From NCBI GenBank assembly GCA_029564935.1, contig JAKQPD010000406.1:152-64151 (forward strand): 64,000 nt of DNA, written 5' to 3'. The notes beneath the pieces are model-generated. The model ran no database searches. It had not been told where the DNA came from and was given only the letters and a program-made list of their open reading frames with translations. Position 1 is the stretch's first letter; every line of letters starts with the position of its first letter. The DNA is from Bacteroidota bacterium (GTDB lineage: Bacteria; Bacteroidota; Bacteroidia; Bacteroidales; VadinHA17). This document shows positions 33,480 to 61,600 of this stretch, piece after piece. The position numbers and the translations under genes were made by a program.

Positions 33480-33526
33480 GGATTGCTTCGTCGTCCCGCC
33501 TTATGCGGGACTCCTCACAATGACGG
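33480..33526. repeat. REP-like palindromic element, copy 1 (short form)
   Basis: GGATTGCTTCGTCGTCCCGC-cttat-GCGGGACTCCTCACAATGACGG. It is the reverse complement of the arms of the element at 63146-63220, with one arm mismatch. Confidence 0.9.
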
Positions 33527-33536
33527 TAACTAAAGA

Positions 33537-33989
33537 TTGATCTATGAGAGTATGAAAGGGATGACAGTAATAGTAAAGAAAACGACGCAGCTGATTGCAG
33601 GGCTTGTATTTCTTTATGGTATTTATGTGATCGTCCATGGTCACCTTACACCGGGAGGCGGATTTGCCGGAGGAGTAATCATTGCAGGATCATTTATCCT
33701 CCTCATTCTTGCCTTCGGAAGCGATTTCATGAAATTGACAAAGGAGGAATCGGGATCGACACTTTATGAGAACCTTGCCATTCTCATTGTGGCATTCCTG
33801 GCATGTTCCGGATTAATTTTCGGTACAGGGATATTTTTCCTGAACTGGTTACCTAAAGGAACAGCCGGTGAACTGATAAGCGCAGGGATCATTCCCCTGT
33901 ATAATATTTTTGTCGGTATAGAAGTTGCCGCATCCATACTTACTATTTTTCTTGCACTAATAATTTTCAAGGAGGAGATGCCCGAATGA
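33537..33989 (+). CDS. MrpB/MbhF-like antiporter subunit
   Basis: GHLTPGGGFAGGVIIAG motif. Alternative ATG start at 33552. Confidence 0.85.
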   Translation: MIYESMKGMTVIVKKTTQLIAGLVFLYGIYVIVHGHLTPGGGFAGGVIIAGSFILLILAFGSDFMKLTKEESGSTLYENLAILIVAFLACSGLIFGTGIFFLNWLPKGTAGELISAGIIPLYNIFVGIEVAASILTIFLALIIFKEEMPE

Positions 33990-34324
33990 TACCATACCTG
34001 ATGTGTTTTGGATTGTTCCTTACAGGCCTGTATGGCATAATTACAAGAAGAAACCTTGTGAAAATAGCCATTTCGCTTTCCGTTATGGAATTCAGTACCT
34101 TCCTTTTCCTGGCGCTGATCGGATATATTGAAGGCGGAACAGCGCCGATTGTTGATCCTGCCGATCCGGTAAAAGTATATGTAGATCCCTTACCCCAGGC
34201 GCTTGTTCTGACCGCCATTGTGATCGGACTTGCCACAACGGCAATGATAATGGCCGTTATCATAAGGATCTACAGAAAATACGGAACATTTGATATAAGA
34301 GAGATTAAAAACCTCAAAGGATAG
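33986..34324 (+). CDS. MrpC/NuoK-like antiporter subunit
   Basis: 112 aa with 3 TM helices. GLYGIITRRNLVKIAISLSVME motif. Confidence 0.85.
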   Translation: MIPYLMCFGLFLTGLYGIITRRNLVKIAISLSVMEFSTFLFLALIGYIEGGTAPIVDPADPVKVYVDPLPQALVLTAIVIGLATTAMIMAVIIRIYRKYGTFDIREIKNLKG

Positions 34325-34327
34325 ATT

Positions 34328-35866
34328 ATGAATCCGCTGATCCCTTTATTTGTAATAATACCCCTGGCCGGAGCCTTCCTTATAATGATTATTGGCAGGT
34401 TCATCAGGGATTTCGATAAGTATTTTGCCACACTAGTACTTCTTTTTCTGGCTGTGGTCAGCTTCTGGTTTCTTTTCTCTACAGGTGAGAAGGTTACAGT
34501 ATATAAAGCAGGCGGCTGGGAGCCTGTCAACGGTGTCCCTGTCGGTATTTACATGGTCCTCGACGGATTCAATACCCTGGTTTTGTGTATAATAAATCTT
34601 ATCGGATTCCTTTCGGTCTTTTATTCAATATCCTATATGAACAGATATACCTCCGGAAATTATTTCTACTCACTTTTCTGCCTCATGGTAGCAGGAATGA
34701 ACGGAGTAGTAATAAGCGGAGATATCTTTAACATTTTCGTATTTCTTGAGATATCGGCAATCTCATCTTATGCGCTTGTTGCATTCGGGGTTGAAAAGAA
34801 TGAACTTGAAGCGACTTTTAAATACCAGGTTCTGGGTGGTATCGCATCGTTTATGATACTTTTCGGAATAGGATTCATCTACTGGAAAGCCAAAACCCTT
34901 AACATTGCCGATATCCGTATTGTGTTCAGTACAGGATATGACAGGACATACTATCTTTTTGTGCAGATCCTCCTTTTAGCCGGATTTGGTCTGAAGGCAG
35001 CAATAATGCCTTTCCACGCATGGCTTCCCGATGCGCATTCATCAGCACCTTCCCCGATTTCTGCGATGCTTTCGGGGGTTCTGATCAAGGCTGTCGGAAT
35101 ATATGTGATTATCAGGTTGTTTTTTAACATGTTCGCCATCAGTCAGGCCATGTCTGTACTTATCACATCACTTGGTGCACTGTCGATGCTGATCGGTGTC
35201 TTGCTGGCCATAGGGCAATGGGATATCAAACGGCTGCTTGCATACCACAGCATCAGTCAGATGGGATATGTTGTCCTTTCTGTCGGGATCGGGATGATGC
35301 TGATTTCAAAGGGAATGAGAAACGAAATTGCCGCACTTGCAATAGCAGGCGGAATATTTCACCTGATAAACCATGCTGCATTTAAAGGGTTGCTATTCCT
35401 CAATGCCGGGGCAATAGAATATGCTGCAGGGACTCGTGATCTTCATGAGATGGGTGGTCTGGCCAGGCAGATGCCGGCTACTGCTGCCACATCCTTTACC
35501 GCATCAATGGCAATTTCCGGCATACCACCCTTTAACGGATTCTTCAGTAAGCTCATAATAATCGTTGCAGCTGTGATGGCAAGATATTACCTACTTGCAG
35601 TACTTGCCGTGATAGTCAGCATTATTACGCTGGCGTCATTTCTTAAATTTCAGCGCTATGCATTTTTTAATAAATCTGAAGGCCCGAACACAGGAAAAAT
35701 CAGGGAAGTTCCTTTCCCGATGGTGTTCAGCATGATAATATTAAGCATTATCTGCTTGCTTCTCAGTCTGCTGGTATTGCCCGGCATTAGGGAAACAATT
35801 CTTACACCGGCAACGGATATACTTATGGATCCGTCAAAATATCCATCTCAAATAACTGGCATATGA
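34328..35866 (+). CDS. MrpD/NuoM/N-like antiporter subunit
   Basis: 512 aa, polytopic. MPFHAWLPDAHSSAPSPISAMLSG motif. Confidence 0.88.
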   Translation: MNPLIPLFVIIPLAGAFLIMIIGRFIRDFDKYFATLVLLFLAVVSFWFLFSTGEKVTVYKAGGWEPVNGVPVGIYMVLDGFNTLVLCIINLIGFLSVFYSISYMNRYTSGNYFYSLFCLMVAGMNGVVISGDIFNIFVFLEISAISSYALVAFGVEKNELEATFKYQVLGGIASFMILFGIGFIYWKAKTLNIADIRIVFSTGYDRTYYLFVQILLLAGFGLKAAIMPFHAWLPDAHSSAPSPISAMLSGVLIKAVGIYVIIRLFFNMFAISQAMSVLITSLGALSMLIGVLLAIGQWDIKRLLAYHSISQMGYVVLSVGIGMMLISKGMRNEIAALAIAGGIFHLINHAAFKGLLFLNAGAIEYAAGTRDLHEMGGLARQMPATAATSFTASMAISGIPPFNGFFSKLIIIVAAVMARYYLLAVLAVIVSIITLASFLKFQRYAFFNKSEGPNTGKIREVPFPMVFSMIILSIICLLLSLLVLPGIRETILTPATDILMDPSKYPSQITGI

Positions 35867-36351
35867 GGAGATATATAGCTGTATTCATATTATCACTGAT
35901 ATTCTGGTTACTGCTAACCTTCAGGATCACTGTCCCCAATATCATTACCGGTTCGGTGGCTTCAGCACTTACCTCCGCAATTTTCGCCAGGTATTATTTC
36001 AATAATGTCTATAAGTATCTTCAGCCCGCCAGGTGGTTCTGGTTTCTGATTTATCTTATTGTTTTCCTGTGGGCATGCATAAAAGCTAATTTCGATGTAG
36101 CTTACAGGGTTCTTCATCCCGCAATGCCGATCAAACCCGGTATAGTAAAAGTTAGAACAACTCTCAGATCGGAATTTGCAAAAACCATTCTTGCCAATTC
36201 CATAACAATGACACCGGGAACAATCACAGTCGATATTATTGAGAATGATTTCTATATCCACTGGATTTATGTAAGTTCCGATGATCCCGAGGTTTATACT
36301 AAGAAAATCACCGGGAATTTTGAAAAATACATTAAAAGATTTGCAGAATGA
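35863..36351 (+). CDS. MrpE-like subunit
   Basis: 162 aa. NFDVAYRVLHPAMPIKPGIVKV motif. Confidence 0.8.
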   Translation: MRRYIAVFILSLIFWLLLTFRITVPNIITGSVASALTSAIFARYYFNNVYKYLQPARWFWFLIYLIVFLWACIKANFDVAYRVLHPAMPIKPGIVKVRTTLRSEFAKTILANSITMTPGTITVDIIENDFYIHWIYVSSDDPEVYTKKITGNFEKYIKRFAE

Positions 36352-36614
36352 ATGAATTACTTAACATACTGCTCTATATCCAGATCGGTCTGAGTGCGGC
36401 CTGTCTTTACAGGATCATCAGGGGACCCACAATTCCCGACAGGATGGTAGGCATAGATATCTTTGGCATACTGGTTGTCGGCATCTGTGCAATAATCTCA
36501 ATCCAAACCGAAAGATCATTCATCCTTGACATCGGTATTGCCTGGATAATTTTAAGCTTCACGGGAACCCTGACACTTGCAAAATATCTGAGCGGGAAAA
36601 AATTAAACGAGTAA
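36348..36614 (+). CDS. MrpF-like subunit
   Basis: 88 aa. YRIIRGPTIPDRMVGIDI motif. Confidence 0.8.
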   Translation: MNELLNILLYIQIGLSAACLYRIIRGPTIPDRMVGIDIFGILVVGICAIISIQTERSFILDIGIAWIILSFTGTLTLAKYLSGKKLNE

Positions 36615-36615
36615 T

Positions 36616-36933
36616 ATGGCTACAATAATATTTATTTGTATAGGTGTGTTGTTCAATACTTTCGGATGCATAGGGCTGATCCGTCTGCCGGATGTCTATA
36701 ACAGGCTGCAATCGGCCACCAAATGTGTCACACTTGGCTGCTGCAGTATGCTCACCGGGGTGATAATCCATTTCGGGGTAAGTGATGCAGGCGCCAAAGC
36801 GCTGATAGCCATACCGATCCTGTTTTTCAGCTCAACAGTGGCCGCTCATGCCCTTATCAGAGGTTCATATCATTTCGGGACCAGGTTATCTGACAAGACA
36901 GTGAAGGATGATTATAAGGAGGCGGTAAAATGA
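36616..36933 (+). CDS. MrpG-like subunit
   Basis: 105 aa. GLIRLPDVYNRLQSATKCVTLG motif. Confidence 0.85.
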   Translation: MATIIFICIGVLFNTFGCIGLIRLPDVYNRLQSATKCVTLGCCSMLTGVIIHFGVSDAGAKALIAIPILFFSSTVAAHALIRGSYHFGTRLSDKTVKDDYKEAVK

Positions 36934-37550
36934 AATATCCAAAGCTCAGAGAATTAAAAGAAGCCGTAATCTCACTGGTAACGCCGGCATACACTTCAAA
37001 ATTCCCGGCTGAGCCTCATGTTCCGTTTGAGAGATTCCGCGGAAAACCTGTTGTCGATGACCGGAACTGTGTCGGTTGCGAGACCTGTGCCAACGTTTGC
37101 CCTCCCCATGCAATTACTTTTAAGGATGATAAAATAAAGAAGATCAGGACCATCACCCGCGATTACGGGAAATGTATATTCTGTGGGATGTGCCAGGAGC
37201 ACTGCATTACAGGTAAGGGAGTTGCTTTATCAGACAAGATATTTGACATAGCTGCATTCGACAGGAAAACTATAATTGAATACCAGGAAAAAGAGTTGCT
37301 TATCTGTGAAAACTGCGGAGCAATCATTACAACGGCAGAACATCTTTATTACATGCACAGGAAACTTGGCCCCAAAGCGTTTTCATCAATCCTTAATCTT
37401 AATATGCTGAACCGGAACCTGAAGCTTGCCGAAGGACAGGATGTTGATGTGGAAATAAAGGACGGACTTAAAAGAAAAGACATGTTTAATATAATTTGTC
37501 CCAACTGCCTGCGCCAGGTCCTTGTAAAATACTTATATAAAGGTGTTTAA
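36930..37550 (+). CDS. NuoI/HycF/MbhN-like 2x[4Fe-4S] subunit
   Basis: CVGCETCANVCPPHAI and CIFCGMCQEHC. An additional CENCG...CPNC pair lies in a C-terminal extension. Confidence 0.85.
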   Translation: MKYPKLRELKEAVISLVTPAYTSKFPAEPHVPFERFRGKPVVDDRNCVGCETCANVCPPHAITFKDDKIKKIRTITRDYGKCIFCGMCQEHCITGKGVALSDKIFDIAAFDRKTIIEYQEKELLICENCGAIITTAEHLYYMHRKLGPKAFSSILNLNMLNRNLKLAEGQDVDVEIKDGLKRKDMFNIICPNCLRQVLVKYLYKGV

Positions 37551-38010
37551 AGAACTCGATAAGATCCTGGAAAATAAGCACGGAAAGATACTTTTTGCAG
37601 GTATCGGGAATGTCCTGAAAAGCGATGACGGAGCCGGAGTATATGTTAGCAACAGGATAATCAGTAATGACAACATCCTTGCTCTTACTGTTGAAACGGG
37701 AATAGAGAATTATATCGGAAAAATAAACTCGCTGAATCCCGATATTCTTGTGTTGATTGATTGTGCGGACATGAACCTTCCTCCGGGAAGTTTCAGCCTA
37801 CTGGATACTAATCACATACAGGACTTAACCTTCAATACACATAACATATCGCTCAGCAGACTGACGGATTTTTTTAATATGCCGGTTTATACTCTCGCAA
37901 TTCAACCGGAAAATATTCATTTTGGAGAAAATATTTCGTATATTGTAAAGGAAATTGCAGATAAAATTATTAACCGAATAAACAGACAGGAGGATCAAAA
38001 ATGGCCGTAG
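37543..38010 (+). CDS. hycI: [NiFe]-hydrogenase maturation endopeptidase (HycI/HybD family)
   Basis: FAGIGNVLKSDDGAGVYV and LIDCADM motifs. 155 aa. Confidence 0.85.
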   Translation: MFKELDKILENKHGKILFAGIGNVLKSDDGAGVYVSNRIISNDNILALTVETGIENYIGKINSLNPDILVLIDCADMNLPPGSFSLLDTNHIQDLTFNTHNISLSRLTDFFNMPVYTLAIQPENIHFGENISYIVKEIADKIINRINRQEDQKWP

Positions 38011-38420
38011 AATATCTTTGTAAAGTTTGCAGAGGTCATCTCAATGTAAAGACCTCTATTATCCTTACTGCTACCAACCTTGCTGATCGTTCACAGAAGG
38101 GATTGGTTTATCTGAATCCCGAGATCGGGAACTACACTCATACCACCCACCCTACATTCAGTATAAAAGAGGGAGAGGAATACATCTTCACCTGTCCAAT
38201 TTGCGGAGCACAGCTGAACAGCATGAAGTATCTTCACCTTGTCAGGATTCTGATGAAGGATGATGAAGGCAAGGAATTCAATATTTACTTTTCAGGGATC
38301 GGGGGTGAGAAGTGCACATACAAGATCCGGGGTAACAAGATTGAAGCCCGCACAGGACCTGACGTAAAAGCATACGACAAGTATTTCGAAGTTCCCGACG
38401 AGGACAGAAAATATCTGTAG
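38001..38420 (+). CDS. Unknown Zn-ribbon protein, last gene of the hydrogenase operon
   Basis: 139 aa. Two CxxC pairs (CKVCRGH, CPICGAQ). The start overlaps the protease gene by 10 nt. Confidence 0.6.
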   Translation: MAVEYLCKVCRGHLNVKTSIILTATNLADRSQKGLVYLNPEIGNYTHTTHPTFSIKEGEEYIFTCPICGAQLNSMKYLHLVRILMKDDEGKEFNIYFSGIGGEKCTYKIRGNKIEARTGPDVKAYDKYFEVPDEDRKYL

Positions 38421-51500: not shown

Positions 51501-52198
51501 CTTATGTGCTTTACCTTGCCGGGTTCGATGTGAAAGATGTCCATATGACAGATCTGATGTCGGGCAGGGAGACGCTTGAGGACATCAGCATGATAGTTTT
51601 TGTGGGAGGATTTTCAAATTCCGATGTCCTCGGTTCAGCCAAAGGATGGGCAGGAGCTTTCAGATATAACGGATCTGCCGGAAAAGCACTTGAGAATTTT
51701 TACAGAAGAAGAGACACTCTTTCACTGGGAGTTTGTAATGGCTGTCAGCTTATGGCTGAACTGGGACTGATATGTCCGGATCATGAAGAGATGCCAAAAC
51801 TCCTGCATAATAAATCGGGGAAGTTTGAATCAATATTTCTCAATGTAAGGATACAGGAAAACAAGTCTGTTATGCTCGGCAGTCTGTCCGGTATGGAGCT
51901 CGGCGTCTGGGTTGCACATGGGGAAGGGCAGTTCAGGTTGCCGTACAATGAGGAAAAATATAACATTCCTGTTAAATATTCCCATCATACTTATCCGGCC
52001 AATCCGAACGGTTCTGATTATGATGCGGCTGCGCTTTGTTCTGATGACGGCAGGCATCTTATAATGATGCCACATCCTGAAAGGGCTTTCTTACCATGGC
52101 AATGTGGCTGGTATCCGGCAGACAGGAAAAAAGATGAAGTCACTCCCTGGTTAAAGGCATTTGTAAATGCCCGCAGGTGGATAGAAGAGAACATGTAG
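48506..52198 (+). CDS. purL: Phosphoribosylformylglycinamidine synthase, single-chain large form
   Basis: 1230 aa. NSEHCRHKIF, ETHNFPT, SGGEIRD-like GTGGEIRDR, and C-terminal glutaminase motifs GVCNGCQLM and PHPER. Confidence 0.95.
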   Translation: MILFFENHSKTIIAAGTSVEPDKDQISKLEWLFGDARLLGKSRLTGNFRGPRKEMITPWSTNAVEITQNMGIEGISRIEEFVPVSGKPVWDPMLQAIYDSLGQDLFTIERKPDPVLAVENIREYNKSEGLALSEEEIDYLERLSISLGRKLTDSEVFGFSQVNSEHCRHKIFNGTFIIDGKEMDSSLFQLIKLTTKTNPNKVVSAYKDNCAFIEGPVIEQFAPATQDKPDFFRIKDFKAVLSLKAETHNFPTTVEPFNGASTGTGGEIRDRIAGGKGAFPVAGTAVYMTSYPRPEGGRLWEKAIKERPWLHQTPEDILIKASNGASDFGNKFGQPLICGSLFTFEHKENNKLYGYDKVIMLAGGIGTGKLADSEKNSPQKGDLIILLGGDNYRIGMGGGAVSSVETGRYDSSIELNAVQRANPEMQKRVYNAIRALGEMDKNPVISIHDHGAGGHLNCLSELVEATGGRIDISKLPVGDATLSAKEIIGNESQERMGLVMKKPSAEILRKIAERERAPFYVIGEITGDHQFTLINPVTGEKPVDIKLESLFGDPPKTVMNDVTIPSSFRKVEYKQDLINEYIERVLSIEEVACKDWLTNKVDRSVTGRIAKQQCAGPLQLPLNNPGVISLDYKGRYGMATSIGHAPVAALADPAAGSVLAIAEALTNIIWAPLTDSLKSVSLSANWMWPCKNKGEDARLYSAVKAASDFAIALGINIPTGKDSLSMTQKYSDVVVYSPGTVIISASGEVNDIRRIVEPVVVNDPYSSLLYIDMSRDSFRPGGSSFAQVLNSVGDEIPTVKDPGYFAEVFECIQELIREDKVMAGHDISAGGMVTTLLEMCFSNTNGGLSVDISAIDEADTVKILFSQNPGIIIQVKDVNDVSERLLENGISYYAIGHPVNERTLTVTHGAFSETYDIDVLRDIWFKTSYFLDRRQTAPDLALERFLNYKNHSLNLNLDLNLKHDWTFRSLGVSPSRRKKSGIKAAIIREKGVNGDREMAYVLYLAGFDVKDVHMTDLMSGRETLEDISMIVFVGGFSNSDVLGSAKGWAGAFRYNGSAGKALENFYRRRDTLSLGVCNGCQLMAELGLICPDHEEMPKLLHNKSGKFESIFLNVRIQENKSVMLGSLSGMELGVWVAHGEGQFRLPYNEEKYNIPVKYSHHTYPANPNGSDYDAAALCSDDGRHLIMMPHPERAFLPWQCGWYPADRKKDEVTPWLKAFVNARRWIEENM

Positions 52199-52226
52199 AA
52201 AAAAAAAGGGCTGCCATTCGCAGCCC
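52199..52226. terminator. Hairpin terminator between convergent genes (T-run on the minus strand)
   Basis: A9, then GGGCTGC-cattc-GCAGCCC. Read on the minus strand, the stem is followed by T9. Confidence 0.7.
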
Positions 52227-52246
52227 ATCGCCAGGAAATTTACCTT

Positions 52247-52798
52247 TTATCTTTTGACAGGAGTGAATGAAACAGAGAGGAGCTTTGATAAATCCTCTTT
52301 TGAACCATCTCCCATAGATGCATCCTTTGGCAGGATCTGTTCGCTAATGACCTGTATCTGAAATTCTCCGGTATCTTTAATATACATTGATCCGATAAAT
52401 GAATCTGCTCTGTAGTATGGATATGATACCTCGCTTGAATTCCTTATTATCTTATCCGGGGCAGGACGGCCTTCAATCCTGGTCTCATGAACACTGACAA
52501 GTACTTTATTCTTGTAATTAAGATCAGTTGTATCACGTGTGGCACTTGACAGCCATACATTGTACCTTCCGGATTTTGAAACAATAACGTTCCATTCTGC
52601 AGTATTTTCTGAAGGATCCTGTGTGTCACTGTAACAATCAGCATTATCCAGCTGTAAAGAAATGGTACCGTCGGGCTGCTGAATGATTTTTTTCACCGTT
52701 GCATTTTCATCTGCAGTCTTTGTATCATTATTCCCGCATGAAGATAAAATGCCAAGTCCTGTTATTGTCACAATAAAAAAATAGAATAATCTTTTCAT
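52247..52798 (-). CDS. Hypothetical lipoprotein
   Basis: 183 aa with lipobox LSSC. No family recognised. Confidence 0.6.
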   Translation of the reverse strand: MKRLFYFFIVTITGLGILSSCGNNDTKTADENATVKKIIQQPDGTISLQLDNADCYSDTQDPSENTAEWNVIVSKSGRYNVWLSSATRDTTDLNYKNKVLVSVHETRIEGRPAPDKIIRNSSEVSYPYYRADSFIGSMYIKDTGEFQIQVISEQILPKDASMGDGSKEDLSKLLSVSFTPVKR

Positions 52799-52974
52799 GC
52801 CTTTTTTAAAGATTTTTTTGGTTTACTGCATATAGAACGTTACAAAAACCATTCCATTGTACACGAATAAAATTTTAAATTATTAAATAAATTATTTAAA
52901 AAATAAGGGGCTCATTTTGACACGCAAAGATATAAATGTAAAGTATAACAGATGAAGATATGGTGAAAAAATCA

Positions 52975-54876
52975 TCAAATGATTGCAGTTGCCTTGAGTC
53001 TGGATAATTTCTTTTCAGATGTATTTTTTACCGGATCCTGAATAACAAGGGCTTCGGCAACAATTTCAGCTATATCGGCCACTTTGGTTTCAGTAGCTCC
53101 TGCAAAAGTTTTTTTACACAGAGGACAGGCAGTGGCAAGAATATCCGGATTATCTTTTGTAAGTTCAGCAGCTGCGTCAGATGCAATCTTATTCTTCTGC
53201 TGATAACTTATCCTTGTATTTCCGAGGCTTCCTCCGCAGCATAGTGAATTTTCATCGTCAAATCCGGTTTTCAGAAGACGGGCGACATGCATCAGTACCC
53301 TTTTCGGATCATCATAAACACCGGATCGTCTCCCGAGTTCGCAGGGAGTATGATATGCAATTGTTTTACGAAGGAAATTCAGCTTTATTGAACCTTCAAG
53401 GATAAGACGTCTGATGAACTGTGTATGATGCAGAATTTCAACATCGAGATAATAGCTTTCCCTGAATACTTTATAGCAGATCGGGCATGAAGTAACCAGT
53501 ATCTTTGCTCCTGATTTCCAAATAGCCCGTGAATTATAATTAATCAGCTCCCTTGCTTCCCTGTCCTGGCCGGCAAGCATGAGAGGGCGGCCACAACATA
53601 CTCCTCCGTCTTCATCGATAAAATTATAATTTACGCCCGATGCTTCAAGAATCTTTTTCATTGCAATCTTAATTGCCGGAGTAAGATGTGTCATACATCC
53701 TGCAAAGTATATTACATCGGCTTTTGCAGGGTCTGTTTCGGGAAGCCAGTTATATGAAGGACTTGTTGCCGGTTTGGATCTTATATTGAAGGAGTGGTCG
53801 GGAAAATATCTTTTCAGGAGACCCGGATTGCTTACAGGAGTTTCCGTTATCCTTCTTGCGTTCATCCTGATCGGAGTGAGTTCTATTCCCACAGGACATT
53901 TCTGATCACATCGTCCGCACATCAGGCAGTTATCAGCAATATTGCTCACATCAGTTTCATTTCTTAATCCTTTCAGCAGGTAAGCTGACTGAATGTTTAT
54001 TATACCGGCAGAAAAGTTAAGCTGGCAGGCATCGATACAGATACCGCATGAGGAGCATGAATAGATCTGCATTTCCTGGAAAGCACCCGGCTGGTCGCCT
54101 GTTCTGATACCTGAATTCCTGGCAAAAATAAGGAAGAGCTCAGTCGGAATATGCATATAACGGGTGAGAGGGAGAAGGACGAAGAATGTTCCAAGTGAAA
54201 GTGAATAGAGCCACCAGAAAGGGTAAGCCATTTCTATTGCAGGGAGAAAGGATGCCAGGGCAGAACCGAGAGTTCCCGTAAGAAAGCTGCCCGTTCCGTA
54301 TGCCCCGCTTGTGAAACTTTCTGCAAGGAGCCGGCTTGGGAAGATGAGCCACAAGGATGTAAGAGCGACCTTGTCGAGGGGTTTCAGCTTTGTTGTTCTT
54401 TTCATTCCTACTACCGGTGACCAGAATCTTTTAATGACTGCCAGGATAAGACCGGAAAGAATGAATGCCAGGATAAAATCCATCAGGAAACCATAAGCAG
54501 CTTCTATTCCCATTCTTCCGTGAACCGGATTAAAGAACTTGAAAAATATAGCCTTATACGGAGAATTGAGATGTGATTCTCCGAAGACGTCAGCTTCTAT
54601 TGTCCCGAACAAAATAAGAAGGAACCATCCGAAAGCCAGGCTCATATGCATGTATCCCAGCCGGAAATTGGTTTTAAGTATTTTCCTGTGGATAAGGCTT
54701 TCGAGGAATATTTCCTTAATGCTCTGGCCGAATGCCCGTCCGAAGAATCCTCTCTGAAGTCTGAGCTTGTCGGAACGGGAAAGTGCCCTGAACCAGATTA
54801 TACTTCTGGCCACCGCATAAATCAGGATGAAATAGAGGCCAATATTAAAAGGTATTATAAAAGGATCAAACTGCAT
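52975..54876 (-). CDS. Fusion of an N-terminal polytopic membrane domain (HdrE/NarI/DsrM-like?) with an HdrD/DsrK-like Fe-S + 2xCCG domain
   Basis: 633 aa. About 6 hydrophobic helices lie in the first 250 aa, with His in the helices (YMHMSLAFGW, RYMHIPTE). Then CSSCGICIDAC and CLMCGRCDQKCP. CCG motifs are GVCCGRP and SLCCGGSLG. Confidence 0.8.
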   Translation of the reverse strand: MQFDPFIIPFNIGLYFILIYAVARSIIWFRALSRSDKLRLQRGFFGRAFGQSIKEIFLESLIHRKILKTNFRLGYMHMSLAFGWFLLILFGTIEADVFGESHLNSPYKAIFFKFFNPVHGRMGIEAAYGFLMDFILAFILSGLILAVIKRFWSPVVGMKRTTKLKPLDKVALTSLWLIFPSRLLAESFTSGAYGTGSFLTGTLGSALASFLPAIEMAYPFWWLYSLSLGTFFVLLPLTRYMHIPTELFLIFARNSGIRTGDQPGAFQEMQIYSCSSCGICIDACQLNFSAGIINIQSAYLLKGLRNETDVSNIADNCLMCGRCDQKCPVGIELTPIRMNARRITETPVSNPGLLKRYFPDHSFNIRSKPATSPSYNWLPETDPAKADVIYFAGCMTHLTPAIKIAMKKILEASGVNYNFIDEDGGVCCGRPLMLAGQDREARELINYNSRAIWKSGAKILVTSCPICYKVFRESYYLDVEILHHTQFIRRLILEGSIKLNFLRKTIAYHTPCELGRRSGVYDDPKRVLMHVARLLKTGFDDENSLCCGGSLGNTRISYQQKNKIASDAAAELTKDNPDILATACPLCKKTFAGATETKVADIAEIVAEALVIQDPVKNTSEKKLSRLKATAII

Positions 54877-55210
54877 TTTTCAATCTTTTTTGAAAAGCTT
54901 CCCTTGCAAGTAAAATCACGTTTCTTGTATTGACACCGCGGGGGCAGGCAAGAGTACATTTACCACATAGCATGCATTTATTGATGACCTCGCGTACACT
55001 CTCATTTTCACCGCGTTTAAGCAATATCTGAAGTTCCCTCAGACTGAACCGGGTAAAATTGCCTGTCGTACAGGTAGCAGTGCAGCATCCGCATTCAATA
55101 CATATCCTGAAACTTGGTTCCCTCTCGGAGATGTATTCAGCAATACTCTTATCATTCGAATCATAATTGATATGTCTGGCTTTCAATATAGAAAATCCGA
55201 ATTTCTCCAT
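54866..55210 (-). CDS. Small HdrC-like 2x[4Fe-4S] protein
   Basis: 114 aa. CIECGCCTATC and CMLCGKCTLACPRG. Confidence 0.75.
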   Translation of the reverse strand: MEKFGFSILKARHINYDSNDKSIAEYISEREPSFRICIECGCCTATCTTGNFTRFSLRELQILLKRGENESVREVINKCMLCGKCTLACPRGVNTRNVILLAREAFQKRLKNAV

Positions 55211-56244
55211 CAGCTTTCCTGGTTTCTGAAATAATCTATTACATCTGCAGCTGCAGCCCGCGCATGAGAAATAGTATCGGTGATATTCATGGGTGCCGTG
55301 CAGGCGCCTGCATAAAATACACCGTCTGTTTTGCTTTTATTACTACCGAAATGATGATCGGCCGGTGCGAAAAACCGGTTCTCGCCTGTCTGAAGTCCTG
55401 ATGATCTTGCCAGATCAAGACCGCTTTTAGACATTTCCATCCCGGCCATCAGCACCAGCATATCAAGTTCCATTTTCAGGGGTCTGCCGGCCAGAGTGTC
55501 TTCAACTTTCACAACAAGTTTATTTTCAATATTCTCCGATACTTCCGATAACTTCCCCCTGATATAATTTATCCCGTATTTTTCCTGGGACTCCTTGTAC
55601 AGTTCTTCATACATGGCTCCACCCATTCTCATATCCATGTAAAAGCAGAAAACTCTGGCATCAGGAATATGTTTCTTTACCTCCATTGCCTGCTTGACTG
55701 CTGTTATACAACACAGCTTTGAACAATATACATTACCGACCTTTTCATCTCTTGATCCCACGCAATGGATAAATCCGACTTTCCGGGGTATTTCTCCGTT
55801 ATGCCTTCTTATTTCATTCTTCCTGAACAATGTTTCAAGATCGGCTGAAGTAATTATATTATCATAAATACCGTAGCCATATTCTTCCTTCCTCTCGCTC
55901 CGGAAAAGGTCAAAACCTGTTGCGACTATTATTGCATCAGACTTTATTTCACCGTCACCGGATGTTTTTATCACAAATAAACCGTTATTTTTCTCAAGGC
56001 GCTGAACGGTAATTCCTGTACGCAGAGTTACATTTTTATGTCCGGCCTGTTTCTTAAGATACTCAATAACCTCCTTGCTGTCGCGTCTGTCGGGGAACAG
56101 ATGATACCAGTCCTTGACGTGTCCTCCTGTCTGGCCATCTTTTTCAAGCAGAGTAACCAAATAACCGGATCTGGCAAGCTGGCCTGCTGCTTCCATTCCG
56201 GCAGCACCTGCTCCAATTACTGCAATATGTTTTTTCTCAGGCAT
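55210..56244 (-). CDS. hdrA: Short HdrA-like FAD/[4Fe-4S] oxidoreductase
   Basis: 344 aa. VIGAGAAGMEAA dinucleotide fold. HdrA cluster signature CVGSRDEKVGNVYCSKLCC. Confidence 0.85.
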   Translation of the reverse strand: MPEKKHIAVIGAGAAGMEAAGQLARSGYLVTLLEKDGQTGGHVKDWYHLFPDRRDSKEVIEYLKKQAGHKNVTLRTGITVQRLEKNNGLFVIKTSGDGEIKSDAIIVATGFDLFRSERKEEYGYGIYDNIITSADLETLFRKNEIRRHNGEIPRKVGFIHCVGSRDEKVGNVYCSKLCCITAVKQAMEVKKHIPDARVFCFYMDMRMGGAMYEELYKESQEKYGINYIRGKLSEVSENIENKLVVKVEDTLAGRPLKMELDMLVLMAGMEMSKSGLDLARSSGLQTGENRFFAPADHHFGSNKSKTDGVFYAGACTAPMNITDTISHARAAAADVIDYFRNQES

Positions 56245-57298
56245 TGATCAGATTCTGTGGAACAGGCATCTGCCTTCCGTCCTTAGTTTTGAATTTATTA
56301 TCAGGATCATATTCGATACCGATCTTTTTCAGAAGAGGTTCAGACTGTACCATATGAAATTGCAGACCCAGGTCCCATGGATTGATTCCCAGAACAAGCC
56401 CGGCAAGCTCCTCATATGTAAGAATGGGAATCGACTCACCGTTTTCTCCATATACGGTACCTTCCATTTCCTTCATTGTATATTGCCATTTATCCATGAA
56501 CATGTTACAGCCCGGACAATTTGTAAGGACAAAGTCGGGTTTGAACGGTTTCATCGATTCGAATTTCTTTACTGTATTTGAAAGTGAATACCCTCTGTTA
56601 GCCTGGACAAGATACTGTCTGAAGCCGAATCCGCAGCAATGCCTTCTCTCGGGATAATCGATAACCTTACCTCCCCAGCTGTCAATCATACCTCCAAGCA
56701 CGTTCGGGAATTCTGCACCTCCCACGCCGTATTTCGGGAACATCTTGGAATAATGACAGCCGATATGTTCAACAACATTCAGTGGTTCTCCGGTTTCCTT
56801 GTTTATAAGCTTATATTTAGCCTTTTCTGCTATTTCATTCCTGAATTTATAGATAATATCACTTGTGTGTGCCATATTCTCAGGAACATCAAACTCACGG
56901 CCTGTAGCTTTATAAAGGTATTCGCGTGTCTTTTCAAGCTCTTCGGGAAAATGTTTCCAGGTTTCTATTATTTCGGTATAAATACCAAATGATGTTACAC
57001 ATGAGATGGCAATATTTTTGTACCCCGACTCTTTCATCAGGGCAAAATGCCTTGCTACAACAGTCATTATTGTTGCCAGAGGAACAACATCACCGTGGTA
57101 ACCTATTCCGGTGCATGTTGTATGAGAAGGATTTTCATAAACGTCTTTCCCGAGAATATCCCTCATGAAGTGAAGGAAAAACTGTTCGGATCCGGGGAAG
57201 AAGCTTTGTCTGATACATGATCTCACATAGAAAAAATGATCATCTGCTATTTCCTTCTGATAATCTGACCATATCCTTTTCTTGCCATCCTGTTGCAT
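56237..57298 (-). CDS. hdrB: HdrB-like CCG-domain subunit
   Basis: CVTSFG..., RRHCCGFG and TNCPGCNMF. The ATG at 57298 (MQQDGKK) is preferred, 7 nt after the hdrC stop. The ORF-track start at 57349 overlaps hdrC by 44 nt. Confidence 0.85.
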   Translation of the reverse strand: MQQDGKKRIWSDYQKEIADDHFFYVRSCIRQSFFPGSEQFFLHFMRDILGKDVYENPSHTTCTGIGYHGDVVPLATIMTVVARHFALMKESGYKNIAISCVTSFGIYTEIIETWKHFPEELEKTREYLYKATGREFDVPENMAHTSDIIYKFRNEIAEKAKYKLINKETGEPLNVVEHIGCHYSKMFPKYGVGGAEFPNVLGGMIDSWGGKVIDYPERRHCCGFGFRQYLVQANRGYSLSNTVKKFESMKPFKPDFVLTNCPGCNMFMDKWQYTMKEMEGTVYGENGESIPILTYEELAGLVLGINPWDLGLQFHMVQSEPLLKKIGIEYDPDNKFKTKDGRQMPVPQNLINA

Positions 57299-57305
57299 AA
57301 GTGAA

Positions 57306-58019
57306 TTATTTATTATGATGATCTTTTTTATTTGCAGTGAATACTTCAATGAAATATTCGTTGTCTATTCCTTTGTCACTGAACTGAAGTCCCATTTCCG
57401 CAGCTTTTTTCTTTGAATGTCGTTCAATGTCATTATAAAAATCCATTCCTCCGGTGACTTCAAATATCTTCTTCAGTTCTGTTTTGGCATCCTCCGGGAT
57501 CTTTCTTAATGGCCCTGCACCGAGCTCATCTATATGTCCGCCCATTCGTTCAAAAACATCTGTGCTGTTATCGAGGATATATTTCCAGATCGGGCCCTGT
57601 TCAGCGTGCATTTCCGGGCTGACAGCATAGCTTGCAACACAATAGCCGTATTTGAAGATATTTTCACCGACGGTACGTTTTATTGCGAATTGTTGTCTGC
57701 CTTTTTCAGATTCTGTAAAGAATCCGAGCTTCTGGGAAAGAGTTCTTAGCGCCATTACAACCAGAGCCGGGGTATTACCTCTCGGGCAGCGGGTTTTACA
57801 CGACATGCACTCTCCGCAATACCATATGGTCTCCGACTTCAGAAGCTTTTCAATTTCTGCATTATCACCCGACTGAACCAGATCTACAATTTTTCTCGGA
57901 TCGTAATCATAAAATTCCGCTGCGGGACAGATGGCTGTACAAACACCGCAATTCATACAGGCATTAAGTCCTTCTTCGAACCTTATATCCTGCATGAGCA
58001 TTTCATGGTAATTCTGCAT
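57306..58019 (-). CDS. hdrC: HdrC-like 2x[4Fe-4S] subunit
   Basis: 237 aa. CMNCGVCTAICP and CGECMSCKTRCPRGN. Confidence 0.85.
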   Translation of the reverse strand: MQNYHEMLMQDIRFEEGLNACMNCGVCTAICPAAEFYDYDPRKIVDLVQSGDNAEIEKLLKSETIWYCGECMSCKTRCPRGNTPALVVMALRTLSQKLGFFTESEKGRQQFAIKRTVGENIFKYGYCVASYAVSPEMHAEQGPIWKYILDNSTDVFERMGGHIDELGAGPLRKIPEDAKTELKKIFEVTGGMDFYNDIERHSKKKAAEMGLQFSDKGIDNEYFIEVFTANKKDHHNK

Positions 58020-58037
58020 TCCCTGGATTTATTTCCT

Positions 58038-58051
58038 TCTGATTAATCAGA
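58038..58051. promoter_or_regulatory. Perfect 14-bp palindrome TCTGATTAATCAGA (candidate operator)
   Basis: Lies 19-32 nt upstream of the hdrC start and abuts the candidate -7 box. Confidence 0.4.
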
Positions 58052-58052
58052 A

Positions 58053-58060
58053 CAAAAGTA
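58053..58060 (-). promoter_or_regulatory. Candidate -7 promoter box (minus strand TACTTTTG)
   Basis: The plus strand CAAAAGTA is the reverse complement of TAnnTTTG. Lies 34 nt upstream of the hdrC start. Confidence 0.35.
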
Positions 58061-58124
58061 TTGATATACTGAAGACCAGGTAAGAGGATTAAGACCTATT
58101 TTGAATGGGGTATAAATACGTATC

Positions 58125-58302
58125 GGCGCAGGGGTGCAGGGGCACACAGGGGCACAATGGCGCAGGGGCGCAGAGGCGCAACGGCAAAACGGCGCAGGGG
58201 TGTTAGGGCGTTAGGGTGTTATGGCGTTACGGCGTTAAGGCGTTAAGGCGTTAGGGTGTTAGGGCGTTAGGGGGTCAGGGGGTTAGGGGGTCAGGGGGTG
58301 CG
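58125..58302. repeat. Compound tandem 8-bp array (about 22 units): GGCGCAGG-type, then GGCGTTAG-type, then GGGGTYAG-type
   Basis: ggcgcagg ggtgcagg ... ggcgcagg ggcgcaga ggcgcaac ... ggtgttag ggcgttag ggtgttat ggcgttac ggcgttaa ggcgttaa ggcgttag ggtgttag ggcgttag ggggtcag ggggttag ggggtcag ggggtgcg. Confidence 0.95.
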
Positions 58303-58333
58303 GCATGGCTGTCAACCGGAGTTTTGGGGAGAA

Positions 58334-58551
58334 AAGTTTCCCCTCCTTTTTTTTAAGGAGGGGTGGCCAGACCACAAAATCACCTAGTGTGTAGAGATAT
58401 ATATTCTGGCCGGGGTGGTTTATATTATTCTGAGAAAAAAAGTTTTACGTTTACTAAGTCCGTTTTAACCACCCCGGCCGGGAAAGTATTCTTGTAAACG
58501 TTTCAAAATCAGCAATCCCGGCCACCCCTCCTTAAAAAGGATGGGAAACTT
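58334..58551. repeat. Nested inverted-repeat (MITE-like) element, about 220 bp
   Basis: Outer arms are AAGTTTCCCCTCCTTTTTTTTAAGGAGGGGTGGCC (58334-58368) and GGCCACCCCTCCTTAAAAAGGATGGGAAACTT (58520-58551). Inner arms are GGCCGGGGTGGTT (58408-58420) and AACCACCCCGGCC (58467-58479). Confidence 0.8.
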
Positions 58552-58636
58552 ACTTACCAATATTGCAAATGATTACAATAGTTATATTTATTACAATATT
58601 TCTTAAGTTAACGGCTATGGGGGGCACTGTAAGGAT

Positions 58637-61600
58637 TTAATAGCTTATTGAGTCGTTTTTACGGGTGATCTGATTTATCTTATGGTCAGGATCAAGTTCA
58701 AATTTTGCGGCAGAATGACCGTTCCCCGAAGGAATGGCGATCCTGATATCTGTATGCTTTGGTTTTAGATCGGCCGGTGCATCAATGGCAGGTACTGATG
58801 CGGAACCAATCCGTTTTCCTTTCGCATCCGTAACAGCTATTTCAGTTTCCGGAGAAATTATTGCTCCGATGTTATGTACACGAACTGTAATTTCATTTTC
58901 TGAAACCGTTATATCCTCTTTGCCGATGGCAATATCCGGAAGTTCCCAGTATCCCTGATCCGATGGTTCTTTAAGCTCAAGTATTATTATAGTGTTTCTT
59001 CGGGGCACAAAATTAAGTTCCATAGACTCTCCCCTGCCTGCAACAACAGATGATTCACTGAGGTCATAATCGGGTTTCTGATCATCATCCGTATCAATGC
59101 CCACAGTCATGCTCCACTTTCCCGGAATAACATCCCAGAGGGTCATTTCAGCCTTCACAGGATCATTTTCCAGATTATATGCTATTATCTTTAACTTTTC
59201 CGGTCCGGACTCCTGAACAAATACAGCTGTACTTTCCCATGAAGCCGGCGCCTTAAATTTCCAGCTTACACGATTCATGGGATAAAGGATATTTGTTCTT
59301 GTTAACGCAACCCCTCCCAGACGGTCTTCCTGAATTACCGGGTTGAATGATGATATCCTGTCGATCCATACGCTTCCTTCAGTATTTATATATTCGCGGA
59401 TCCCGAGGTTTGATATTTCATTCCTGTAATTATCTGCAATTTTTTTCCTGTTAAATTCCCGTTTGTAAAAGAAGTTCTGTGGAAGAGGTTCCATGTATTT
59501 CTTATCACCTGTGAGCTTCCATGCTGCCAGGAATAACGACCATGGCTTGCCCCTGTTTCCCGTATCGTCCCTCGACTCATCGGTTGAAAAATTAATTTCG
59601 GTAAGTAATTTCCCGTCTTTAGAATGTTCAAGCAAAGCATCAGCAAGTTCAGTGATCATTTTTATAAGCTGCGGGTTGCCGTTATAGCGGGCAAGCAGAT
59701 ATGCAGGCTGGAGGACGTGATAGGAATGATTAACGGACCACTGCCATGGATCTTCTCCGGCAATTCGTGTTCCGCTGTAAAATCTTGATCTGAAGTGACG
59801 ATGACCTTTTTCATTAACCTGTGTAATATCGTTCAGCATCCTGGAGGCTGTTTCCATTCCGCGTTCAATATGCAGAGGATTTCCGTAATCAAGAAGCATA
59901 CATTGAGCGACTACCTGGATTCCTTCTTCAAGCGAATGCAGTTCATCAGTAAAAATGGTAGCCAGTCCGTTTGTAAACAAAGGCAGACTACGCTGTTTCA
60001 GTCCGGATTCATTTGAAGGACGGTCCTGATCATAGTAGGCTGACATTTGCAGCAGGAGCGATTTAAGTAATTTATCAGGATCAATACCCAGAAAAGCCAT
60101 ACCCGGCCACATATTTGTCAGATCACCGTCATCAGAAAGGCCGCCCCCGAATTCCCCGTTGGCTATCTGCCTGTTATCAATATAATATGATGCTATCTTT
60201 TCAAGCTTTTTGAGATATTCTATCTGAAGGAATGCCCACTCAGGAATACCCTCAGGGACTTCAGGAATTTTATATTCCGGTCTGTTTTCCCCGGTGAGTG
60301 CATACCTGTATGTCTGTGCAAGCCAGTGATCGGGTTTTACCGACAACAGGTCGTTACAATCCGCTATAAAACGGTTATAAAGATTTAATCTGGGGGTAAC
60401 AGGTCTCTCTTCAACAATATGTGCATACAGATCACGTACCTGGGTGAAACGATCCGTAACATGTTCATTTAACGAGTTCTCTGCAGTTTTAAATACCAGC
60501 CTGACCTTTGTTCCTGAAAGCATTTCAGCCGTAAGATCATCCCCGGCTCCGGCAATGGTCAGGTACAGAGCCTTATCCGGAGGCAGTATCCTGTCGCGTG
60601 TATCTATCCATAATACGGGAGCCTCACCTGGTCTGACAGAGAAACTGAAATCAGCCAGATCGCGCATTGGCCATAAAGGATCCTTTATCCTTATATTAAC
60701 AGGATATACACCACTGTGTGTCGGGCTGACATTCAGCGAAGGCAATCTTATTTCAATCCCGTCAAGTCCTCTGTCCTTATTTGCTGTATATGGTATCAAT
60801 ATATGTATAAAAGGCAGCATGTCATTATCCGGATTTCCTTTTGCGGATTTACCGGCACTTCCTTCCCGCACGCCGGTCATCATAGCCCTTTCATCTGCCG
60901 GATACCGTCCTTTGATGAAAGAGATAACCTCATTCAGGGATTTATTTTCAGGGGTCACCATAAAAGGTTCTGCGATGAATGTTTCACTTACAGATCTCTC
61001 CGGTGCGCTTCCACTAGAAATATTATAAACTTCAAATGACCCGATTGGTTCTTCGATAAGGGCATTATCGAAACGGACAACACCGCCCTTTTGCGGTTCA
61101 GAGAGATGATGAAATGATTTTATCTGATCCTGTCTTCTGACACCGAAAGTAAAATCGGGCTCCTTATCATCTTCCAGGGTAAGCTGGCCCCAGGCTTTGC
61201 CCCACATCTCGATACGATTCCACTGCTCGTCCGGAAGAGTGAACCTTACTGTCTGGCCGGAGCCGGAATAACAATCCCAGTCGGGCAGAACAAAATAATC
61301 ATATCTGCCCGGCAGTCGTGACATATTATATACAGCCGGCCATGTTGTTTCCCTTATACCGTCATTCGCTTTCCAGTACCAACGTTTTATGTCAAGTGCA
61401 TCGTGTATATCGACCTTCCTTACAGCTGTTTCTGATGAAGGAAGCAAGGGTGGCGGCGGATTCGGAATGTTCCATCCGTTTCTCAGCCACCATTCACCAC
61501 GCCATTTTTCTACTGAAAGATCACGTCTGAAAGGCGCTAATTTTCTCAGGCTTTTTCCGGCAGCAAGTAAAAGGATACTCTCATCAGGAAGCATTCTGTC

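Follow-up and report, generated by a model that had tools for sequence, protein, structure and literature searches.

A module of five genes related to heterodisulfide reductase (Hdr) lies on the minus strand, at 58019..52975, of a 64,000-nucleotide (nt) stretch of DNA from a bacterium of the Bacteroidales (contig JAKQPD010000406.1 of assembly GCA_029564935.1), a stretch that at its full length is called here the window. In their 5' to 3' order the genes encode an HdrC-like subunit (C1), an HdrB-like subunit (B1), a short HdrA-like flavoprotein (A), a small HdrC-type ferredoxin (C2) and a fusion of a membrane domain with an HdrD-like part (MD). With a probability of about one half, the five products would make up one membrane-bound complex acting as an Hdr-like thiol/sulfur:menaquinone oxidoreductase. 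Direct support for the module comes from its gene content, the cofactor motifs, the fold of MD, the invariance of the ligand residues, the tight coupling of the five genes and their obligate occurrence together, and the lack of any fixed accessory gene. All of the components are of known kinds; the searchable literature yielded no description of their combination, sequence clade and distribution, nor of this cluster in Bacteroidales, Bacteroidota, Marinilabiliales or Altiarchaeales, a mention in the HdrA(BC) review of Appel et al. (2021) being possible.

Gene organization and soluble subunits

The five open reading frames (ORFs) are co-directional and overlap or nearly abut, as a preliminary description made from the sequence had already pointed out, with junctions of +7 (C1/B1), -8 (B1/A), -1 (A/C2) and -11 nt (C2/MD). 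A consensus scan revealed no terminator-like site within the cluster which, together with the overlapping junctions, argues for co-transcription of the five genes.

The first gene, C1 (57306..58019), encodes a protein of 237 amino acids that was recognized as HdrC-like from its ORF, its Pfam Fer4 dicluster domain, its motifs and an alignment covering positions 29-194 of the 198 in the NCBIfam HdrC model (95.6 bits, with a cutoff of 350). Two CxxCxxCxxxC [4Fe-4S] motifs, at residues 21 and 68, are accompanied by the long C-terminal extension typical of HdrC. In the case of B1, the non-cubane-cluster subunit, an ORF of 370 amino acids opens at a TTG codon (57349) overlapping C1; since its homologues, 353-357 residues long, begin at the equivalent of Met18, the protein most likely starts there (56237..57298, 353 amino acids). 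B1 is HdrB-like along its whole length (NCBIfam, 138 bits with a cutoff of 450) and aligns end to end with methanogen HdrB at 29% identity (116 bits), with a single Pfam CCG match. All of its eight cysteines sit at predicted cluster-ligand positions. The C-terminal CCG site is complete (C181, C221-C222, C261-x2-C264), whereas the N-terminal one is degenerate, keeping three of the five cysteines in a C..TC..CxxS pattern (C28, T61-C62, C100-x2-S103). The HdrB-like nature initially ascribed to this protein thus extends to its full length, and of the CCG motifs noted with it only the C-terminal one is intact.

The A gene (55210..56244) encodes 344 amino acids with a Pfam Pyr_redox_2 domain and an HdrA core (261 bits to the NCBIfam HdrA2 model, with a cutoff of 1100). 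A GxGxxG for binding flavin adenine dinucleotide (FAD) was read at residue 11; at residue 161 is found CVGSRDEKVGNVYCSKLCC, which lies within the only [4Fe-4S] motif of the protein, C161-VGSRD-x8-C174-x3-C178-C179, the cluster signature first reported for this short HdrA. A aligns only to residues ~144-230 and 318-561 of methanogen HdrA, and therefore comes without the N-terminal, the inserted-ferredoxin and the C-terminal ferredoxin domains of the latter. For this reason, the term flavin-based, originally applied to the module, is not to be read as electron-bifurcating. Along residues 99-335, the identity is 50% to Altiarchaeales, 41-43% to the core of methanogen HdrA (43% with 9sfi) and 33-39% to the HdrA of the sulfur-oxidizing Hdr-like (sHdr) systems. 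The last of the soluble subunits, C2 (54866..55210, 114 amino acids), is a 2x[4Fe-4S] protein with a Pfam Fer4 dicluster and two CxxCxxCxxxC motifs, which matches only the N-terminal ferredoxin core of the NCBIfam HdrC model and has no C-terminal extension; its gene is found directly 5' of the MD gene in all related loci. Altogether, NCBIfam scores so far under the equivalog cutoffs (96 against 350, 138 against 450 and 261 against 1100 bits) point to divergent paralogues and not to a reductase of the coenzyme M-coenzyme B heterodisulfide (CoM-S-S-CoB).

The membrane-anchored fusion protein

The 633 amino acids of MD (52975..54876) were assigned from Pfam, NCBIfam, AlphaFold and Foldseek results. 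Behind a hydrophobic N-terminus, Pfam detects a Fer4 dicluster at residues 271-331 and two CCG domains (91 bits), in agreement with two CxxCxxCxxxC motifs and two complete C...CCG...CxxC sets, in which all ten CCG cysteines are present (C394, C427-428, C464 and C467; C512, C546-547, C584 and C587). Each of the 18 cysteines of the protein falls at a predicted cluster-ligand position. The membrane part, thought at first to be a third of the protein, takes up about 40% of it (around residues 1-255, 54112..54876) and forms a NarI/HdrE-like domain of five long helices in the AlphaFold model; it is followed by a segment (53842..54084) lying between the membrane and CCG domains, and by the non-cubane-cluster (2 x CCG) domain itself at residues 385-610 (53047..53724), delimited by Pfam, motifs, conservation and fold. 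The model was obtained with an alignment of 58 sequences at 38-90% identity and reached a predicted local distance difference test score (pLDDT) of 87.9 and a predicted template-modelling score of 0.83, after a first model from 18 close homologues (pLDDT 53) had been discarded for its unusable membrane part.

A Foldseek search of the PDB gave as best match the EtfD of Mycobacterium smegmatis (9OJN), aligned over the entire chain (E 6.5e-21, template-modelling score 0.67), followed by HdrB and LutA, which cover the CCG domain of MD only. The same EtfD is the sole sequence relative of MD in the PDB (E 1.6e-14), again over the full length and with H77 of MD aligned to the heme ligand H78. In this regard, the residues invariant in the 58 MD homologues comprise H63, H77, H242 and Y224, the eight cubane cysteines and the ten CCG cysteines, and H77 and H242 stand where EtfD has its proximal heme b ligands (H78/H241) and where the electron-transfer flavoprotein (ETF):menaquinone oxidoreductase (EMO) has H87/H251, histidines that are also kept in the EMO of a type II sHdr locus (L133, see below). 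Besides these two, H63 is the only invariant membrane histidine among the 58 homologues. The distal-heme histidine of EMO is replaced by Y218 in the MD of the window and missing in the archaeal homologue, so that a single heme b, the proximal one, is most likely in MD.

Conservation and distribution of the module

A first genome scan with MD as query retrieved at least 547 species-representative genomes. Fens, lake sediments, soils and digesters are the sources of the best 80 of them, all of which belong to uncultured Bacteroidales. In this clade, which is the one of the window, the five genes are colinear on one strand in each of the 67 loci with enough upstream sequence, six of which show a truncated match to one or two genes. 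A second scan, with a diverse MD alignment, retrieved at least 584 genomes, including Prolixibacteraceae, Marinilabiliales and rumen and gut Bacteroidales, and six cultured carriers: Gaoshiqia hydrogeniformans Z1-71 (complete genome), G. sediminis, Plebeiibacterium sediminum, Marinilabilia salmonicolor, Mariniphaga sediminis and Maribellus luteus. The full ordered set was found in 61 of 61 loci of this broader Bacteroidia sample, with insertions in five. Colinearity in 67/67 and 61/61 related loci indicates that the arrangement is not due to chance. Moreover, the flanks are wholly different between lineages, as seen for instance in three long-contig genomes with the module, and the persistence of the set while its flanks change makes the five genes a self-contained module. 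The only neighbour that recurs, mildly, in the broader sample is a two-component system (13-14 loci), and a lipoprotein gene and purL adjoin the module only in the clade of the window.

The B1 family is a rare one: an exhaustive HMMER search against 1.84 billion representatives returned only 65 proteins at E<=1e-30, mainly incomplete members of this family. Beyond Bacteroidia, the closest full-length proteins come from Candidatus Altiarchaeales (45-47% identity, with 42% for B1 in the comparison that also covered methanogen HdrB and sHdrB1), and the names and taxa of the second-tier relatives gave no placement relative to sulfur oxidizers. One contig of Candidatus Altiarchaeales WOR_SM1_SCG (L081, MCBE01000066.1, 4360-16000) carries counterparts of all five genes at about 38-47% identity (C1 46%, C2 47%, and an MD of 630 amino acids 38% along the full length), and the whole module therefore crosses the domain boundary. 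The archaeal locus has its own peculiarities: the C1-B1 pair is duplicated, each copy preceded by a small helix-turn-helix regulator; a NifX/NifB-like gene of 123 amino acids sits between C1' and B1'; an additional 2x[4Fe-4S] ferredoxin of ~65 amino acids separates A from C2; and two convergent nitrogenase-like genes (NifD/K-family-looking) lie downstream.

A different anchor is found in a metagenomic contig rich in guanine and cytosine (L084, JGI 3300035696, Ga0374055_0073639, 1-4875), where a membrane domain fused to an HdrC1-like subunit, in a QmoC-like manner, precedes a B1-like gene (41%), an A-like gene (31%) and an SQR-like Pyr_redox_2 protein, with no MD. Because this transmembrane-HdrC1 fusion takes the place of MD, the B1-A core appears to have been linked to the membrane repeatedly. 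In a metagenome-assembled genome labelled Oscillatoriales cyanobacterium (CAITND010000033.1), a B1-like gene (7974-9044) with 70% identity to that of Altiarchaeales stands alone: the other four module genes are missing, and rhodanese-like and thioredoxin-reductase-like genes lie a few kilobases (kb) downstream; it may represent a transfer event or a binning artefact.

Relationship with known Hdr-type complexes

The membrane and HdrD-like parts of MD were initially likened to the HdrED, DsrMK and HmeCD pairs, and a more precise comparison is the fused HdrF/EMO/EtfD class; the module does not correspond to a characterized Hme, Dsr or Tmc variant. Members of that class, such as the EtfD of M. smegmatis (9OJN), the EMO of Syntrophus aciditrophicus and the HdrF of Desulfobacterium autotrophicum, have in one chain the five-helix heme b domain, the pair of cubane [4Fe-4S] clusters as well as the two CCG domains of MD, with which they share the proximal-heme histidines, and their genes likewise adjoin an electron-supplying module. 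The name HdrF was given to a protein of the MD type in 2009, its genes adjoining glpAB or etfAB (PMC2702500). Experiments have shown that the EtfD of M. smegmatis wires electrons from the cytoplasm to menaquinone, by way of four Fe-S clusters and of heme b (PMC13083937), and in both EtfD and the S. aciditrophicus EMO electrons enter at the non-cubane clusters and reach (methyl)menaquinone after passing the two cubanes and then heme b (PMC13083937; bioRxiv 10.64898/2026.08.18.745454). MD differs from EMO and EtfD, to which it is only 16-23% identical, in several respects. Their partner is EtfAB or GlpAB, whereas MD goes with C1, B1, A and C2, and no etfA or etfB gene was met in the flanks of ~80 module loci. 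The distal cluster is modified in EtfD and EMO, with Thr for one Cys in EtfD, and in the EMO of the type II shdr cluster the first motif lacks both CC and CxxC and the second one a cysteine; in contrast, MD keeps the ten CCG cysteines. Finally, MD has neither the distal-heme histidine nor the long disordered C-terminus of those proteins. The cluster sites of MD are thus HdrD-like and its overall build EtfD-like.

Compared with HdrDE, the methanophenazine:CoM-S-S-CoB oxidoreductase of Methanosarcina, MD corresponds to HdrE and HdrD in one chain with the full set of catalytic cysteines; HdrDE is made of two polypeptides and works alone, whereas MD is a single chain with four partner genes. As for the methanogen HdrABC, B1 and C1 align end to end with HdrB and HdrC, respectively, but HdrA has three additional Fe-S domains and Mvh or Fdh partners for bifurcation, and A has none of those domains. 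Moreover, the hosts of the module presumably do not make coenzymes M and B. The QmoABC complex of sulfate reducers combines HdrA-like flavoprotein(s) with an HdrC-cytochrome b fusion, an arrangement exactly matched by the fusion standing beside B1 and A in the metagenomic contig described above. Nevertheless, Qmo comprises two HdrA-like subunits and lacks an HdrB/CCG subunit, while the module has one HdrA-like gene and CCG domains in B1 and MD; QmoC has no CCG domain, C1 scores 48 bits to the qmoC model with a cutoff of 300, and the AprAB to which Qmo is linked is absent here.

Proposed mechanism

Taking as models the structure of HdrABC and the scheme advanced for sHdr (PMC11094781), we propose a mechanism in which the features described so far serve to infer a single complex and the order in which its carriers act, the binding of heme and of a quinone, what kind of substrate is used and which way the electrons flow. 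A dimer of the short HdrA, each A with FAD and one [4Fe-4S] cluster, would be a hub with two Fe-S arms. The first arm would consist of C1, with two cubane clusters, and a catalytic B1, with one canonical non-cubane [4Fe-4S] site and one site of the sHdrB1 type minus two cysteines, and would end in the substrate site. In the second arm, C2, as a wire from A to MD, would take the position of ETF on EMO and EtfD, docking on MD at its cytoplasmic non-cubane-cluster domain. Within MD, electrons would go from the two non-cubane clusters to the two cubane clusters, the proximal heme b (H77/H242) and a membrane quinone site. As a net result, a cytoplasmic dithiol, persulfide or other reduced-sulfur substrate would be oxidized at B1 and menaquinone reduced, the menaquinol being re-oxidized by fumarate reductase or terminal oxidases. 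The preliminary description had already put forward an HdrABC-like module whose link to the quinone pool would be a fused membrane subunit, an idea that finds support in the invariant five-gene unit, the EtfD-like fold and the conserved heme-b histidines.

Menaquinone is more positive than the common dithiol/disulfide couples. The oxidative direction is favoured because quinone reduction is what the characterized relatives of MD carry out, because energy is released that way and because B1 resembles the oxidative sHdrB1. In this line, relatives of the HdrF/EMO/EtfD/GlpC type deliver electrons to (methyl)menaquinone (PMC2702500, PMC13083937, bioRxiv 10.64898/2026.08.18.745454).

Several observations weigh against this proposal. 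No gene giving a clue to the substrate is conserved with the module in the loci of the clade, the broader sample or the window. HdrDE, which is the closest catalytic analogue of MD, runs reductively, and two potentially catalytic non-cubane sites, in B1 and in MD, do not fit a simple linear wire. H63 of MD is invariant besides the predicted heme ligands H77 and H242, and the number of hemes, most likely one per MD, is a count from the sequence alone.

Alternative readings

A reductive mode like that of HdrDE or Qmo is unlikely, although it survives better than the other alternatives. Menaquinol would here be the reductant of a disulfide or polysulfide in the cytoplasm, acting at B1, at MD through its complete CCG site, or at both. 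The proton-motive force could assist, or else a second donor of low potential whose electrons converge on the FAD of A (electron confurcation). Such a reaction would serve fermenters as an electron sink or a thiol-repair system. Unlike the purely electron-transferring EMO and EtfD, MD holds the full HdrD/HdrB cysteine set, HdrDE reduces the heterodisulfide from a membrane carrier, and the scaffold of the S. aciditrophicus EMO can couple to the proton-motive force (bioRxiv 10.64898/2026.08.18.745454), but the distal-heme histidine of that coupled EMO is replaced (Y218) or, in the archaeal homologue, absent. A FAD hub with two Fe-S arms would keep a bifurcation-like geometry and the organism of the window has several low-potential hydrogenases; against this, A is devoid of the ferredoxin-interacting domains and no donor module such as MvhD, FdhB or an NAD(P)H-binding protein accompanies it. 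An AhpC/Redoxin-family gene lies directly 3' of the module in one genome, while no conserved acceptor-related gene was found nearby. Furthermore, the reduction of ordinary disulfides by menaquinol is uphill.

Somewhat less likely still is a third, compact type of sHdr, in which B1 would oxidize protein-bound sulfane sulfur to sulfite, as proposed for sHdrB1, with LbpA and sulfur transferases encoded elsewhere in the genome, and C2 plus MD would stand in for sHdrC2B2 (type I) or sHdrB3-EtfAB-EMO (type II) and send electrons straight to menaquinone. To compare both, authentic sHdr loci were fetched with a partial Hyphomicrobium sHdrA sequence from a 6TJR alignment: a type I locus of Hyphomicrobium sp. 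GJ21 (L089), with sLpl, DsrE3, C1, B1, A, H, B2 and LbpA, and C2 expected between H and B2 (ORF unresolved), and the type II locus L133, with B1, A, H, B3, EtfB and EMO plus a recovered EtfA ORF. The start C1-B1-short A is common to the module and to both sHdr types (shdrC1B1AHC2B2 and shdrC1B1AHB3-etfAB-emo), and the order C1-B1-A-...-C2-[B2-like domain] parallels that of type I, as noted from the outset. sHdrA is similar to A in length and domain content (PDB 6TJR, E 5e-53), and the EMO that closes the type II clusters has the architecture of MD. Moreover, the N-terminal pattern C, S/T-C, C-x2-S, with its two diagnostic replacements of Cys by Ser or Thr, is common to B1 and to sHdrB1 of types I and II; this degenerate predicted cluster site is the one functionally suggestive likeness to sHdr. 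Genes of sulfur metabolism also occur around the module, either 4-7 kb upstream in part of the clade (TusE/DsrC-like, DsrE2-type and SQR-like, or YeeE plus rhodanese) or, in the metagenomic contig L084, as the SQR-like gene after the B1-A pair.

Against these likenesses, sHdrH is what defines the published sHdr systems, with LbpA and sulfur transferases as their constant companions (PMC11094781), and the genes for sHdrH, B2/B3, EtfAB, LbpA, lipoate ligase and DsrE3 are all missing near the module. Searches by tblastn with sHdrH (of L089 and L133), LbpA, sLpl, DsrE3, EtfA and EtfB gave zero hits in the window and 81 Bacteroidales loci (1.47 megabases, Mb), and the 1-nt overlap of A and C2 leaves no room for sHdrH. 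Similarly, tblastn found no homologues of TusE/DsrC, DsrE2, YeeE or rhodanese in the window and no separate B2, for which only weak partial matches were obtained with sHdrB2 (24-27%); those with the sHdrB3 of L133, weak as well, fall in MD and C1 only. An absence of lipoate-binding, sulfur-carrier, Mvh or Etf partners in the window, as first stated, is consistent with these searches and with hydrogenases that are not of the Mvh type. The subunit identities are low (sHdrA 33-39% to A, sHdrB1 25-28% to B1, EMO 22-23% to MD), no closer than those to methanogen Hdr (A 43%, B1 29%); sHdrB1 has Asp where B1 keeps C261; and the sHdrC2-like ORF of another locus (L126) measures ~240 amino acids, compared to the 114 of C2. 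The sulfur-gene neighbours vanish in the broader sample, and the hosts, Bacteroidia and Altiarchaeales, are fermentative or facultative anaerobes, not known sulfur oxidizers. Without sHdrH, LbpA, lipoate ligase, Etf and B2/B3, and with such low identities, the module fails the published definition of sHdr: of the resemblance first seen in the gene order, the sHdrB1-type N-terminal site of B1 persists and the rest of the system does not. More doubtful again is the narrower idea of a third sHdr-type sulfur oxidation that would be independent of the lipoate cluster and wired to menaquinone through a catalytically competent HdrED-like fusion.

Two enzymes that merely share an operon, namely a soluble complex of the HdrC1B1A type and an independent ETF:menaquinone oxidoreductase (C2-MD) serving beta-oxidation or other ETF-linked dehydrogenases encoded elsewhere, are quite improbable, since the EMO/EtfD architecture of MD and the pairing of HdrF/EMO genes with etfAB or glpAB in other organisms are outweighed by a five-gene co-occurrence without exception in 128 loci and the archaeon, the overlapping gene junctions, the absence of etfAB from 1.47 Mb of flanks, the departure of MD from EMO/EtfD exactly at the cluster sites that receive electrons from ETF, and a B1 family nearly confined to the module.

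Upstream sequence and genomic context

The putative promoter/operator of the cluster (58053..58124, minus strand) combines a Bacteroidetes-type -7 box, TACTTTTG, at 58053-58060, ~35-40 nt 5' of the C1 start codon, with a preceding element of ~45 nt, GATACGTATTTATACCCC..CAAAATAGGTCTTAATCCTCTTACC, at 58079-58124 (minus strand). The consensus of the latter, taTa.GTATaaATACccc....AAATAGGcTTTAAgC.TcTT.c, is strong in 69 related loci and weak but recognizable in 63 distant ones, and the element is likely a binding site for a regulator, putative as it is. A sigma-70 promoter scan gave 17 matches compared to 16 expected from shuffles, the sigma-70 consensus not covering Bacteroidetes promoters, and an Rfam scan of 52000-58800 detected no riboswitch or leader, only a chance match to a long non-coding RNA. 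In the consensus scan, a terminator-like hairpin was seen behind the upstream gene of 1243 amino acids (58363..58340).

Farther upstream, a C-rich tandem array of 8-nt units extends along 58125-58296 (minus strand), ~105-280 nt 5' of the start of C1, and another one much like it, in the same orientation, is found at 17925-18010 (minus strand), ~130-240 nt 5' of the hydC-like start at 17770. The units, (YTGCGCCN)n, run on into (TAACGCCC)n with telomere-like CCCTAAC units, and the pattern CTGCGCCNNTGCGCC has 7 matches where 0.02 would be expected. Arrays of variable length occupy the same position in several relatives (L002, with ~20 units, L005, L017, L034, L050 and L061), the stretch being N-masked in L001. 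The array could be a shared cis-regulatory element or a variable-number repeat, and its presence before both a hydrogenase and an Hdr-like operon is a possible hint of common regulation.

Downstream of MD, a gene at 52247..52798 (minus strand) encodes a lipoprotein of 183 amino acids with a lipobox LSSC and no Pfam family. It is always co-oriented with the module, usually 90-270 nt 3' of MD, and occurs in 67 of 80 loci of the clade of the window; the protein has conserved NTAEW and VW..SAT.DT..L.Y sequences and no conserved cysteine apart from the lipobox. No terminator-like site separates it from MD, and the transcript may therefore run on through this gene as far as a terminator-like hairpin plus T-run at 52208..52226 (minus strand, consensus scan only). 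In the broader Bacteroidia sample only 1 locus of 80 has it, and it was not detected in the archaeal locus; the lipoprotein was therefore not counted as a sixth member of the module.

The sulfur genes upstream of the module in part of the clade come in two sets, placed ~4-7 kb 5' of C1. One comprises a divergent SQR-like gene, a TusE/DsrC-like gene with a single C-terminal Cys and a DsrE2-type gene, and the other, at the same position, a split YeeE/YedE transporter and a rhodanese-like lipoprotein; one or the other was seen in loci L011-L014, L036, L045, L046, L055, L057, L060 and L064, and L022, L023, L031, L052, L054, L061, L068, L071, L072 and L078. Both sets sit beside a small secreted protein (cluster c12), always with unrelated genes before the module. 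As clues to the substrate they were rejected: this synteny is lineage-specific and, being absent from the window and the broader sample, constitutes weak evidence.

The remaining features of the window bear on the general metabolism of the organism. A HydABC-type [FeFe]-hydrogenase operon (14327-17770, minus strand) encodes a HydA of 593 amino acids (Fe_hyd_lg_C plus small-subunit domain) with NuoF-like (386 amino acids) and NuoE-like (155 amino acids) proteins, which indicates a hydrogenase linked to NADH and ferredoxin and probably bifurcating. It is followed by maturation genes of the HypE/HypD/HypF type (20227-24762, minus strand), recognized by eye from the ORF translations, and by genes that Pfam identifies as a Rex-like regulator (24774-25457) and a Fer4_22 protein with an NAD-binding/DHODB-type Fe-S protein (25646-27468). 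Over ~27969-38420 extends the cluster of a membrane-bound [NiFe]-hydrogenase of group 4, with small and large subunits detected by Pfam (28891-29322 and 29819-31015) and NuoH/L-like and Mrp-like antiporter subunits read by eye from the ORF translations. These hydrogenases, none of the Mvh type, lie 15-40 kb from the module, and the fermentative metabolism of the organism is centred on hydrogen. Within the uncultured Bacteroidales, this organism stands nearest to metagenome-assembled genomes that carry the label Rikenellaceae.

Biological implications

Hdr-like modules are central to anaerobic energy conservation, and substrates are known for only a few of them. The one described here unites three parts of otherwise separate systems, namely a short HdrA of the sHdr type, a catalytic subunit like sHdrB1, and an HdrE-HdrD fusion of the EMO/EtfD type that, unusually for this type, has the full catalytic cysteines. 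Its distribution is wide, with hundreds of species-level Bacteroidia genomes from peat, sediment, digester, rumen and gut plus an archaeal lineage, and its function is directly testable because cultured, sequenced strains carry it. Should the third sHdr type be true, hundreds of "fermentative" Bacteroidia and the Altiarchaeales would cryptically oxidize sulfane sulfur or thiols in the cytoplasm, feeding an anaerobic (fumarate) or microaerobic respiration. In any event, the identity of the substrate would add an entry to, or an exit from, the menaquinone pool of ecologically dominant anaerobes, and would help to clarify what turns the non-cubane-cluster domain from a catalyst into a mere carrier of electrons, or the reverse.

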